Below are positions 1-4,628 of a stretch of DNA of 64,000 nucleotides, piece by piece (the stretch's first letter is position 1; each line of letters starts with the position of its first letter). Both the position numbers and the translations under genes were made by a program. The notes under the pieces are model-generated. The model had not been told where the DNA came from, searched no databases, and was given only the letters and a program-made list of their open reading frames with translations. Origin of the DNA: an uncultured Gemmatimonadaceae bacterium (lineage in GTDB: Bacteria > Gemmatimonadota > Gemmatimonadetes > Gemmatimonadales > Gemmatimonadaceae); the NCBI GenBank assembly GCA_963716745.1, contig OY970320.1:1056001-1120000 (forward strand), given 5' to 3'.

Positions 1-1896
1 GCGTCAGGTGGCGCTGATGCTTCACCACGCCAATGACGTTCACGTACTCCGCCGTATCGGCGCGGAAGCGCACGAGCAGCCGCTTGCCCAGCGGATCCGC
101 GCCCGGGAACGCCTTCGCGGCCAGCAGGTCGTCGATGATCACCGACTGCGATTTCGGGATGTTCTCCGCCTCGGTGAAATCGCGCCCCGCAATGATCGGC
201 GTGTGCATCGCGGCGAAGAATCCCGGCGCCACGATGAATGAGTTCGCTTGCTTGAACGCCGCCATGTCGGTCGCCGCAGCCTCGGTGCCCCACCGCACGT
301 TCGATTCCTGCCCGTCGAGCAGCGTCGGGAACGATGACGTCAATTCCGTCACGCCCGGCACCGCGGAGAGCCGATCGTTCAACGCCCGTTGGAACGCCTG
401 CCGCTGCATCCTGGTTCATGCGCCGCGCGATCTGCAGGTTGAACGTGAGCACGCCGTGCGGATCGAACCCGGGATCGGTGTTCACGAGCGCGAGGAAGCT
501 GCGGAACATCAAGCCGCCGCCGATGAGCAGCACGAAGGCGAGCGCGACCTCCGCCATCACCGACAGCTGTTGCGGAGCCGGCGGCCGCTGCCGAGCCCCT
601 CATTGCGTCCGCTCTGGCGCAGCGTAGAAATGAGATCGGGGCGCGACGCGCGCAGCGCCGGCATCACGCCGAACAATGCCGCGGCCACCAGCGCGGCGAA
701 CATCGTGTACAGCAGCACGCCGCCATCGATCCCGACATACGCGAGATTCGGGAATGTCCTGCGGGCCGATCGCCACGAGCATGCCGATCCCCGCTTTCGC
801 GACCGCCAGTCCCAGCACCGCGCCGCCCATGGCGAGCACGAGCGCCTCGGCGAGCATCTGCCGCACGAGCCGCGAGCGGCTGCCGCCGAACGCCGCGCGC
901 ACCGCGAGCTCGCGCTCGCGCCGCGACGTGCGCACCAGGATGAGGTTCGCGACGTTCGCGCAGGCGATGAGCAGCACGAAGGCCACGGCGCCGAGCAGGG
1001 CGACGAGCGCCGGCTTCACCTCCGAGACCAGTTCGGCGTCCATCGGCACCGCGCGGAAGTAGACGCCCGCCGTCGTCTTGATCGGGAATTTCTTGCGCAG
1101 ATCGATCCCGAGCGCGTCGAGCTGCGCCTGCGCTTGTCCAAAGCGTCGCGCCGGGCTTGAGGCGCCCGATGAGACGGAAGATCACATTGATCCGCGATCC
1201 CTTCTCGAGGTCGATTCGCGCGGCCTGGAAGACGTCGTGATCGGGCGTGATCCCGTAGCGCGGCGGGAAGAGGATCTGCAGCCCGGGCGCCGCGACGCCC
1301 ACGATGTGGCCCATGTTGAAGCCCATGTCGAGCGTCTTGCCAATGACATTCGGATCGCCACCGAAGTGACTTTTCCAGAATTCGTTCGAGAGGATCACCG
1401 CGACATCCTGCGGCGGTGGCGGCGGCGCATTCGCGGCCGGCGGGGTGTTGGGCTGCGGCGGAGGCGGGATCGCGTCGTCGTCGTTGAAGTCGCGGCCGAG
1501 GGCCACCTTGGCGCCCAGCACGCGAAGGAGGTTCGGCGTCACGAATCCGAGCTTGATCTGCTCGGGCTCGCCCTGGTCGTTCTTGAGGGAGACGCGGAAA
1601 TTGTTGATGCCCGCGATGTCGCTGAATGCCGTCGCCTGCTGGCGCATGTCCCACAGGTCCGACGGCGCGATGAAGAAGTCGTACACGTTCCGGTTCCGCA
1701 TGTCGCTCGTGACGATCGCGAGGCGCGACGGATCCGCGTATGGCAGCGGGCGCAGCATCACGGCGTTCACCACGCTGAAGATCGCGGTGCTCGCGCCAAT
1801 GCCGAGCGCGAGCGTGATGAGGGCCGTGATCGCGAACCCCGGACTCTTCCTCAGGGTGCGAACACCGTAAGCGATGTCGGACAGGAACGTTTCCAT
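1..1896 (-). CDS. ABC transporter permease, ADOP/MacB-FtsX duplicated type (3' truncated by window; several frameshifts, e.g. ~1140, ~750, ~600)
   Basis: [84 protein letters not shown] continues in another frame. Confidence 0.9.
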
Positions 1897-2056
1897 GGAG
1901 CACCCCAGGGATGCGGATGGGTCCGGCGGGCGGTCCTCGGTTGGACACGCCGCGTGCGGAAAAGGTGTCCTCGACCTCGGCATCGGTGCAAGCGCGCGCT
2001 TGCGCGCCGGCCGGGACCGCTGAATGGTTACGGGGACGAACTCCCTACGGAGACCC

Positions 2057-2729
2057 ATGTCGAATCGTGTCAGCTTGGGAGCCATGCTTGGCGCGATGAT
2101 CTCGATCGCGCCGGCTCGCGTTCGGTCAGGCCGTGGTGCCTGCGCCGGTGCACGTGCAGCCGGCGAACAGCCAGACCCTTCAGCAGACCGTATCGACCGC
2201 GCAGGCGATGAGCGTGAAGCCGGCGCCCGCCAATGCGGCCGCAATGCATGCCCGCGTCATGCCGCACCTGAGCGCGCCGGCGCAGAGTTGGGTCCAGTCG
2301 GAGGCGAGGGTGATCGCCGGGCGGAATCTCAGTTCCTCGCAGATGATCGGGATGGCCCAGTCCGATGTGAAGAGCCGGTTCGCCGGCCAGGGGCTGTCCA
2401 ACATGGACATCGACCAGCTCGTGCAGCTGGTGATGTTCCAGACGGCACAGGACGCGCAGAACGATCTCAAGGACCAGCTCGCCGCGGTGCAGAAGAGCAA
2501 CCAGGAGAAGGCGGCCCAGCGAAACGCGGCGAACCTCCAGAAGCAGCAGGCCGCGGCCATCAAGGATTCGCTCAAGAACCATCAGGACCAAGCGGGTGAC
2601 GTCTCGCAGGAACAACAGATGAAGATGCAGACATACATGAACCGCATGAGCCAGGCGGAGAAAGCTATGAGCAACATGCTGCAGAGGATGTCGCAGACGA
2701 ACTCCGGCATCCTGTCGAACCTCAAGTAA
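2057..2729 (+). CDS. Secreted alpha-helical Gln/Met-rich protein with T3SS needle/filament-like C-terminus (apparent frameshift ~2115 in signal peptide)
   Basis: GGAG RBS then ATG 2057 (MSNRVSLGAMLGAMISIAP), joining the frame of ORF 2133-2729; C-terminus SQEQQMKMQTYMNRMSQAEKAMSNMLQRMSQTNSGILSNLK. Confidence 0.7.
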
Positions 2730-2755
2730 CGTTCGTCATCCCCTCGGAGAATCCC

Positions 2756-3658
2756 ATGATCCCCTTCCGCGCGATCTTCGTCGCAGCGCTGTATCTCCTT
2801 AAGACGGGTTCGTTCCTGCAGTTGCCAGGCATTACGGGTGAGAGTACGGATATGAAGCACAAAGACTGGATCGCGCTCGAATCGGTGAGCTTCGGCGTCA
2901 CCAATGCCGCGGCGTCGGGCAGCGGGGCGAGCACGAGGTCGAGCAGTAGCAGGACGTCGTCGAGAGACATCCAGATCACCAAGCTCAACGATAGGTCATC
3001 GGCGGAGCTCATGCAGGCCGCCGCGAACGGCAAGCATTTCGCCACTGCGGAGATCGATGTTGGCACGACCCGCTATCTGCTGAAGGAGGTGATCGTCGCG
3101 TCGGTGCAGCAGACGGGGCATGGCTCGGGCGGGGGTGAGCCGACGGAGCACCTGACGCTGGTCTACGAGAGCATTCAGATCATCTATCCGCCGAAGCCAG
3201 GCACGACGGCCGCGGCCGGGGCCGCTGCCGCACCGCGCCCGACGACCATGGCGGCACCACCGATGGCCGCGCCGCCCGCTGCGCCGCCCACTGCGCCGAC
3301 CCGGGCGATGGCTGCCGCTCCGGCCACTATGTCGGCACCGGCCGCGACGAGCCCCGTCGCGCTCGAACAGCAACTCACGCAGTCACTCAGTGGAGCGGGC
3401 CGGACGTGGGTCGCGACGGAAGGCCGCGCATTGTCGCAGAATAACGGGAGCGCGGATCAACTGGTGGCCGCCGCGCGCCAGAGCGCGCAATCGCGGTTCG
3501 GCGCTCAGCCCGCCAACGTCACGAACGCGCTCGCGTTTCTCGCGCTCATGGACGCCACCAAGGCGGATCACAATCTCGCGCAATTGCAGCCCGCGATCCG
3601 CGAAGTGATGGGCGCGACGAACGCGAGCGCGGCGGGAGGGCTCGCGAACTTACACTAG
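2756..3658 (+). CDS. hcp: Hcp (T6SS tube)-domain protein with hydrophobic N-terminus, Pro/Ala linker and extra C-terminal helical domain
   Basis: FLQLPGITGESTDMKHKDWIALESVSFG...DIQITKLNDRSSAELMQAAANGKH...YLLKEVIVASV...PTEHLTLVYESI matches the Hcp1 pattern; GGAG RBS at 2746. Confidence 0.85.
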   Translation: MIPFRAIFVAALYLLKTGSFLQLPGITGESTDMKHKDWIALESVSFGVTNAAASGSGASTRSSSSRTSSRDIQITKLNDRSSAELMQAAANGKHFATAEIDVGTTRYLLKEVIVASVQQTGHGSGGGEPTEHLTLVYESIQIIYPPKPGTTAAAGAAAAPRPTTMAAPPMAAPPAAPPTAPTRAMAAAPATMSAPAATSPVALEQQLTQSLSGAGRTWVATEGRALSQNNGSADQLVAAARQSAQSRFGAQPANVTNALAFLALMDATKADHNLAQLQPAIREVMGATNASAAGGLANLH

Positions 3659-3659
3659 C

Positions 3660-4049
3660 TCACTTCTTCTCCGTCACCGGCTCGGGGAAGACTTTAGCCC
3701 AGTCGGCCGCGCTCAGCACGTTCCGGAGATCGAAGATCCGGTCGGTGAGGTGACTCGCGTTCGCCGAATCGGCGGCGATGAACGGCTTCACGTCGGCCAC
3801 GAGCTGCCCGTCCGTCGTGGCGCGGTCGGCGAGGGCGGTCTTGAGCGACGCGATCAGCTTCGAGCGCTCCTTCTGGAACGCTTCATTCTCAACCTTCGCC
3901 GAATCCACGATGGCCAGCGCCTGTTTTTTCGTGGGCTCCGCCGTGATGCTCTTGTCGATGCCCTTGCTCGCGGCTTCGATGTGCTGCTGGATGAGCGCCG
4001 AGGCGCCACCATGCAGCAAGAAGTAGGCGATGATCAGCGAGGTCAGCAT
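3660..4049 (-). CDS. Hypothetical helical exported/membrane-anchored protein
   Basis: N-terminal hydrophobic segment; ends LRNVLSAADWAKVF; similar to the upstream gene. Confidence 0.7.
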   Translation of the reverse strand: MLTSLIIAYFLLHGGASALIQQHIEAASKGIDKSITAEPTKKQALAIVDSAKVENEAFQKERSKLIASLKTALADRATTDGQLVADVKPFIAADSANASHLTDRIFDLRNVLSAADWAKVFPEPVTEKK

Positions 4050-4064
4050 GGGATACGCTCCGTT

Positions 4065-4517
4065 TCAGTATTCGAGCGCCTGGACTTCGGCTTCGGAGAG
4101 CTTCAAACGCGCATTCTTGAGCTGCTGCCACTCCGCATTGGTGGCCATCGCCGCCATGCGCGATCGCAGCGCCGCGAGTTCGGGGACCACCGTTGCGCGC
4201 TCGGCAGCCGACGCGCTGAACACCGAATCGAATTGCGCGCGCGTGGAGCCGTAGTCGCGCGTCAACACGCCGATGCGCGCACTGGCCGCGGAGTCCCGCG
4301 ACGCGACGCCCGCGATGATACGCTGGAATTCGTTCGTCATCGCGACGAGTGAGTCGGCGCGAGCGGAGTCTGTCACGATCTTCCGGATCTCGCTTTGGAA
4401 CTGCGTCATATCGTGCTGCGCGGTCTGGCTCGGGCTCAGCTCCGGCTTCTTCGAGCACGCGGATAGCGAGAGCATGCAGGCGAGCGCCGCTGGAGCACAT
4501 TGGATGAGCGTTCTCAT
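4065..4517 (-). CDS. Helical lipoprotein
   Basis: MRTLIQCAPAALACMLSLSAC lipobox; ends MAAMATNAEWQQL. Confidence 0.75.
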   Translation of the reverse strand: MRTLIQCAPAALACMLSLSACSKKPELSPSQTAQHDMTQFQSEIRKIVTDSARADSLVAMTNEFQRIIAGVASRDSAASARIGVLTRDYGSTRAQFDSVFSASAAERATVVPELAALRSRMAAMATNAEWQQLKNARLKLSEAEVQALEY

Positions 4518-4628
4518 TGTCCCGTCCCTTGACAGGTCCCTTCCGCCGAGCACGCGAACGTGGAGAGGATCGCATCAGCAGTGTACGGCCGCAATACGAC
4601 CTTGTACGTATGGTTAGATTTCGGCTAC

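Follow-up and report, generated by a model that had tools for sequence, protein, structure and literature searches.

In a 64,000-nucleotide stretch of contig OY970320.1 from an uncultured Gemmatimonadaceae bacterium (assembly GCA_963716745.1, positions 1,056,001 to 1,120,000; hereafter the window), we analyzed two neighboring genes, called gene 1 and gene 2. Behind a signal peptide, gene 2 encodes a genuine Hcp domain that a flexible Pro/Ala linker joins to an internally shortened copy of a helical domain that we name X, and gene 1 encodes a stand-alone X protein. Our tentative preference, held at less than even confidence, is that the products of the two genes form one putative hetero-assembly in the cell envelope. 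An initial annotation of this DNA had gone further and proposed an exported Hcp ring that displays copies of a shared domain to a filament made by gene 1. The anatomy of the locus is real and unusual; the mechanism proposed for it at that stage is plausible but unproven.

Hcp (TssD) is the inner-tube protein of type VI secretion systems (T6SS), with structures such as PDB 1Y12 and 3EAA. Canonical Hcp has no signal peptide and is exported via the T6SS, and its hexameric rings stack into a tube. The assignment of gene 2 to this protein family was borne out at the levels of both sequence and fold. Residues 20–144 matched the Pfam family T6SS_HCP (PF05638) over its entire length (profile positions 1–129 of 129; E-value 6.7e-27; 94.8 bits versus a cut-off of 23.5), and an AlphaFold2 (AF2) model of the same part matched Hcp crystal structures in Foldseek (E-value 3.6e-9; template-modeling score 0.6–0.76, normalized to the target; 24–29% identity). 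Unlike Hcp/TssD, the gene 2 protein carries a Sec-type signal peptide that is conserved among its homologs and a C-terminal helical domain, and its genome lacks TssB, TssC, TssK and VgrG. The N-terminal segment consists of roughly 19 residues ahead of the Hcp domain, with a basic start and a hydrophobic core. A hydrophobic extension of this kind was found in all eight proteins in which Hcp is fused to X (Hcp-X proteins), while a canonical Hcp (P0167) is without one. Signal-like segments were detected in P0011–P0014, which are 51–90% identical to gene 2, and in the distant fusions P0022, P0032 and P0051, and several of the Hcp-X segments end in Ala-x-Ala-type sites. Signal peptides were called with a crude hydrophobicity heuristic of our own rather than with SignalP. 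By this crude test, N-terminal signal peptides of the Sec type are conserved in homologs of both genes, and the original prediction that both proteins are Sec-exported was upheld. Past the Hcp domain, residues 148–198 form a Pro/Ala-rich linker of about 50 residues that is predicted to be disordered (predicted local distance difference test, pLDDT, below 50), and the C-terminal domain beyond it was modeled as helical (pLDDT 65–81). A homolog search with the Hcp part alone returned only the same five fusions and one canonical Hcp.

Judged from its homologs, gene 1 is a member of a large, unannotated and uncharacterized protein family, the family X introduced above. Nine close homologs were found (63–99% identity, 222–225 amino acids), all with clear signal peptides. 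When a profile of both gene families was compared with 1.84 billion cluster representatives, 1576 matched at E≤1e-3 and 492 at E≤1e-10. Most of the 150 top matches are 180–260 amino acids long (typically about 200), nearly all of them end in x-N-[LMIV]-K, and a signal-peptide-like N-terminus was called in 122 of the 142 members that start with methionine. The few named members come from Gemmatimonadaceae, Verrucomicrobiota and Deltaproteobacteria metagenome-assembled genomes and are all annotated as hypothetical proteins; no X member examined reached a curated Pfam or NCBIfam cut-off. A PHROGs search of gene 1 added nothing, a scan of viral contigs with the family pattern found no relative, and a tblastn search of plasmids with P0025 gave no match. 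The best PDB sequence match of the family profile was Fis, at an E-value of 0.068, which we took as chance.

The AF2 model of gene 1, built with 134 sequences, has a pLDDT of 84.2 and contains helices at residues 32–44, 47–62, 67–81, 89–150 and 157–195. The first three form a bundle (residues 32–81), and the last two form a long hairpin. Conservation within the family peaks twice, once early in the long helix (DIxAL..LV.M...A..DL...N..K...R) and again in the last helix (QL.LQM.MDR.SK...LSN..KK.S.T...I..NLK), such that the base of the hairpin is made of conserved helices and the tip varies. Three proteins of about 1100 amino acids that are without a signal peptide (P0108, P0151 and P0163) have an insert of about 650 residues at the hairpin tip, which parts their conserved X helices. 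Filament subunits such as flagellin likewise have a conserved base and a variable tip that accepts inserts. We also observed a complete X domain at the end of a 2299-amino-acid two-partner-secretion (TPS) exoprotein (P0166/P0121), where it is preceded by repeats and by short matches to ABC_toxin_N and TcdB-mid. Outside the window, the same genome encodes a third, distant X-like paralog (locus L038, 1240–2100, minus strand; G000:C1:788582-789028), which matched the family profile at an E-value of 2.3e-7. It has a signal peptide and the N-terminal bundle, has no NLK end as assembled, and lies directly upstream of a multicopper-oxidase-like gene.

That gene 1 and gene 2 have a domain in common had been proposed from the start, and the similarity proved significant both between the two proteins (17 of 57 identities, E-value 1e-6 by BLASTP) and between the gene 1 and Hcp-fusion families in a profile-profile comparison (hhalign probability 95.8%, E-value 8.2e-9, 74 columns). 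In a multiple alignment, the similarity runs on from the bundle into the start of the long helix and returns at the C-terminal N-L-[KHR]; the copy in gene 2 thus keeps the bundle, the long-helix start and the last ∼20 residues, which end in ANLH. Because the similarity continues past the bundle and resumes at the C-terminus with the center missing, the C-terminal domain of gene 2 is an internally shortened paralog of gene 1. The X domains of the Hcp fusions are mutual nearest relatives, and P0022 retains a complete X domain that is 39–42% identical to gene-1-like proteins. A single fusion event from a gene-1-like ancestor, followed by trimming, would fit these relationships.

The absence of T6SS and type III secretion system (T3SS) genes that had been noted for the 64-kb window was found to extend to the whole genome. 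The window lies in a single 3.29-Mb contig (G000) that is 89.8% complete by marker genes. In this genome, no match was found to TssB/VipA (PF05591), TssC/VipB (PF05943), TssK (PF05936) or VgrG/Phage_GPD (PF05954), to FHIPEP (the SctV/FlhA export gate) or to a needle family. VipB was likewise absent from five further genomes that are 63–93% complete, three of which carry Hcp-X (G515, G536 and G425; the others are G278 and G656). By its gene content, therefore, the host, a Gemmatimonadaceae soil bacterium, is without a T6SS and without a T3SS or flagellar export gate. From this absence together with the predicted Sec-type export, we infer that both proteins must act in the periplasm or on the cell surface, independently of T6SS and T3SS.

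The arrangement of the two genes is found elsewhere as well. In the window, direct reading places the stop codon of gene 1 at 2727–2729 and the ATG of gene 2 at 2756, both on the plus strand. This leaves a gap of 26 bp, and it confirms the coordinates, the spacing and the GGAG ribosome-binding site (RBS) ahead of each gene that had been described for the pair. A gene 1 homolog is adjacent to Hcp-X in four of five loci, namely the window, L006, L007 and L008. Both genes are intact in L006, where they are 30 bp apart, and L007 is a frame-broken assembly. L008 comes from a diverged metagenome contig, in which the gap is 24 bp and identity to the window copies is 71% for gene 1 and 51% for Hcp-X. 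Among the genomes, G515 and G536 carry the pair; G425, which carries Hcp-X without gene 1, is the exception to the adjacency.

A further set of observations concerns the C-terminal helix of X. Among 134 X members, 31 matched the Pfam family T3SS_needle_F (PF09392) at E≤0.1, with a best E-value of 6.5e-6; the next family was matched by five. Within the same set, the NCBIfam model TIGR02105 (SctF) was matched by 17 members at E≤0.1 (best 1.3e-4), compared with six for SseB and two each for FliD and FliE. The needle matches take in the greater part of the model's 71 positions, each of them running to the C-terminus of the X protein, and they align the X ending ...I-I-x-N-L-K in register with the needle ending ...I-I-Q-N-F-R. 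In a protein atlas, the nearest named clusters to X, at 0.81–0.84 and to be taken as leads only, were EspA, needle/DUF5407 and a chlamydial T3SS effector. X differs from SctF in its length (about 200 versus about 80 residues), in its Sec signal peptide and extra three-helix bundle, and in its occurrence here in a genome without a T3SS export gate. Taken at the level of profile matches, the last X helix is needle-like, not a needle subunit.

In the assembly that we tentatively prefer, X would self-associate via the conserved helices at the base of the hairpin. Hcp domains oligomerize, and oligomerization of the gene 2 Hcp domain would hold several shortened X domains together on flexible tethers; docked on gene 1 oligomers or polymers, these domains would then act as their base, cap or anchor. 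Self-assembly of X is suggested by its conserved C-terminus, by the conserved base helices with a free tip, by the needle-like helix, and by the retention of the same parts in the fused copy. A bolder version of this idea holds that X proteins are widespread, Sec-exported and self-polymerizing filament subunits evolutionarily related to T3SS needle and filament proteins, and that the filament base or cap is formed here by a ring of exported Hcp to which six mini-X domains are tethered. The result would be an appendage made of T6SS-type and T3SS-type parts that needs neither machine. We consider this version unlikely.

Several results weigh against these proposals. The needle likeness is limited: although matches to PF09392 and TIGR02105 recur in register with the C-terminus, and the early description of gene 1 as needle- or filament-like stands to that extent, all of them fall below the curated cut-offs (the best PF09392 score was 26.7 bits versus a cut-off of 29.4). 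Gene 1 itself had no PF09392 match at E≤1, EspA showed no similarity to the X family profile, and a comparison of the X family with EprI and EscF of E. coli aligned the last 38 residues end to end (E-value 4.8e-4) at an hhalign probability of only 32%. At the structural level, the gene 1 model had no PDB match in Foldseek at E≤1e-3, and the best hit of a wide VIA search, the spidroin C-terminal domain with a Z-score of 6.8, was within the noise expected for helical proteins. About 56 central alignment columns, and with them most of the hairpin, are gone from the gene 2 copy of X. The pair is also rare: its profile matched 2 of the 401 genomes sampled from the phylum and 9 of the 401 sampled from the family, G000 among them. 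The broad X family profile matched 5 of the 401 phylum genomes. Moreover, a single genus supplies three of the four adjacent pairs, which are therefore not independent. In G425 (L012, about 1159–1500, plus strand, G425:C2), all that is found of gene 1 upstream of Hcp-X is some 12 codons, ...ISATASSILGNL..., which resemble the C-terminal end of gene 1 homologs and are in frame with Hcp-X. Either gene 1 was deleted or this remnant is an artefact of assembly; G425 has a different X paralog on another contig. Finally, an all-against-all BLASTP comparison of the neighbors of stand-alone X genes in eight loci found no common neighbor family. Since stand-alone X genes have no conserved neighbor in these loci, X does not as a rule need an Hcp partner.

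The usually solitary occurrence of X and the persistence of Hcp-X without an adjacent gene 1 in G425 are also what would be expected if the two proteins were independent paralogs. In that case, both would be exported envelope proteins of family X with a structural or protective role in the periplasm or at the surface. One would happen to carry an exported Hcp domain, the two would not bind to one another, and their adjacency would reflect only a tandem duplication. The fused X domains are closest to gene-1-like stand-alone proteins (39–42% for the X domain of P0022), which fits a local duplication. On the other hand, an adjacency of 24–30 bp has been retained down to 51–71% identity. Furthermore, what the fused copy has lost is the variable middle, whereas the bundle at the N-terminus, the beginning of the long helix and the C-terminal end are all still present; such a pattern suggests selection on contact surfaces. 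We place this explanation somewhat on the improbable side.

The variety of proteins that end in an X domain raises a different possibility, namely that X acts as a secreted effector or toxin module like those of polymorphic toxins. Delivery would be by a Sec signal on its own, by an Hcp fusion or by a TPS exoprotein, and gene 2 would be an "evolved Hcp" effector bereft of its T6SS. Evolved or extended Hcp effectors (Hcp-ET) consist of Hcp with a C-terminal toxin domain, whose cognate immunity gene would lie directly downstream, and gene 2 resembles them in its layout, with Hcp at the N-terminus and an extension domain behind it. The term is used in two reviews (PMC6730261, PMC6099711). As in polymorphic toxins, X is C-terminal on different carriers (for example the Hcp fusions P0022, P0032 and P0051), with the domain at the extreme C-terminus both of the TPS exoprotein P0166/P0121 and of Hcp in eight proteins, and a few X members weakly match the translocon families SseC and SseB. 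Against such a role, a polymorphic toxin would be expected to have a conserved immunity gene beside it, but the eight loci showed no immunity-like gene conserved next to X, and the two small genes downstream of gene 2 lie on the other strand and are missing from L006. The extension matched no known toxin family and X no enzyme family, and the gene 1 model lacks hydrophobic membrane-spanning helices, its hairpin being rich in Q, K, E, A and M. The signal peptides in eight of eight Hcp-X proteins are unexpected for a T6SS tube subunit, and there is no T6SS here or in three relatives with Hcp-X. Gene 2 thus departs from Hcp-ET in its predicted Sec-dependent, T6SS-independent export and in having a stand-alone paralog of its extension encoded directly upstream. 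A toxin function for X therefore seems to us decidedly unlikely.

Gene 1 had originally been presented as one continuous gene, which the assembled sequence does not support: the ATG at 2057 and the downstream stretch quoted for its product sit in different frames. Relative to L006 and L007, the window has one extra base near 2115–2116, within the part coding for the signal peptide. Gene 1 is intact over its full 222 amino acids in L006. In L007, a single frame encodes the signal peptide together with the beginning of the mature part, and the two parts are likewise in frame in the homologs P0002–P0007. A BLASTN comparison of the window with L006 identified this insertion as the sole uncompensated indel in gene 1 and found zero indels over the 903 bases of gene 2. 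Contigs from four soil-metagenome runs gave no coverage of 2083–2570. Two other genes of this assembly are also broken. An upstream MacB/FtsX-like permease gene (window 1–1900, minus strand), which we take to be of the type called ADOP, has five uncompensated one-base insertions relative to its L006 ortholog, at about 406, 561, 566, 749 and 1143, where the ortholog is an intact open reading frame (ORF) of 828 amino acids. The permease breaks suggest systematic consensus errors in the assembly. The second broken gene, outside the window, is a small Hcp-like gene (L002, 1450–1954, minus strand; G000:C1:3276078-3276362; PF05638 E-value 9.7e-7) that has its own signal peptide, MRRSFGVAALVGIVLSLGGWA..., and no X domain, and that is split over two frames. 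Given the permease insertions and this frame-broken gene, the break in gene 1 is probably an assembly error as well.

The frame break could also be read as a sign that the locus is decaying, in which case the frameshift would have severed the signal peptide of gene 1, making it a true pseudogene, and gene 2 would be left over from a T6SS that has since been lost. The near-complete deletion of gene 1 in G425 and the trimmed X domain of gene 2 would be in keeping with decay. However, the five permease insertions and the broken second Hcp-like gene point to consensus errors, both genes are intact in L006, and gene 2 has no indel relative to L006 and is conserved at 51–90% identity together with its signal peptide. 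Decay of the locus is accordingly, in our assessment, very improbable. Coordinates of the features discussed above are collected in the following table.

Table. Features of the gene 1/gene 2 locus, in window coordinates.
Feature	Position	Strand	Basis or remark
RBS of gene 1, GGAG	2049..2052	+	4 nt ahead of ATG 2057; read from sequence
Gene 1, whole, ATG to stop	2057..2729	+	spans two frames as assembled
Gene 1 signal-peptide segment, MSNRVSLGAMLGAMISIAPA...	2057..2116	+	frame of ORF 2024-2599, different from that of the gene 1 remainder
Gene 1 mature part, three-helix bundle then long helical hairpin, ends ...SNLK	2133..2729	+	198-aa ORF from GTG 2133
Gene 1 N-terminal three-helix bundle, core of the domain common with gene 2 (approximate)	2229..2378	+	AF2 helices 32-81 of P0001; BLASTP, hhalign
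Gene 1 long helical hairpin (approximate), last ~40-60 residues needle-like	2400..2720	+	AF2 model, family conservation
RBS of gene 2, GGAG	2746..2749	+	6 nt ahead of ATG 2756; read from sequence
Gene 2, 300-aa ORF	2756..3658	+	ORF list
Gene 2 signal peptide, MIPFRAIFVAALYLLKTGS (approximate)	2756..2812	+	conserved hydrophobic N-terminal extension
Gene 2 Hcp beta-barrel domain, residues 20-144	2813..3187	+	PF05638, Foldseek
Gene 2 Pro/Ala-rich linker, residues ~148-198, predicted disordered	3197..3349	+	AF2 pLDDT <50; composition from translation
Gene 2 C-domain, residues ~195-300 including stop codon, shortened gene 1 paralog	3338..3658	+	alignment, hhalign, AF2 helical region

Downstream of gene 2, two minus-strand genes encode small helical envelope proteins: one of 129 amino acids with an N-terminal hydrophobic anchor (3660–4049) and one of 162 amino acids that is lipoprotein-like (4065–4553). 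Their products matched no family at E≤1, are unrelated to X and are not clearly related to each other. The same two genes neighbor Hcp-X in L007 and G425, and L006 lacks both; in L008, a homolog of the 129-amino-acid protein is found beside Hcp-X at the contig end. Composition showed no strong anomaly, and a promoter and terminator scan was uninformative.

In textbook accounts, Hcp and helical subunits of the needle type belong to two dedicated injection machines. At this locus, one predicted Sec-exported protein combines Hcp with a needle-like module; a paralog of this module is encoded on its own by the neighboring gene, and the genome has neither machine. Judged by titles and the openings of abstracts, full-text literature searches brought up no paper on a Sec-exported Hcp or on a Sec-exported needle-like family. 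The novelty here lies in the fusion of Hcp to X and its pairing with a stand-alone X. Family X is now defined, and its testable traits are a C-terminus and base helices that are conserved and a hairpin tip that varies. If the two proteins do assemble, building blocks of the T6SS and T3SS would also serve as ordinary exported parts of the envelope, and this would bear on the origin and reuse of the components of both systems.

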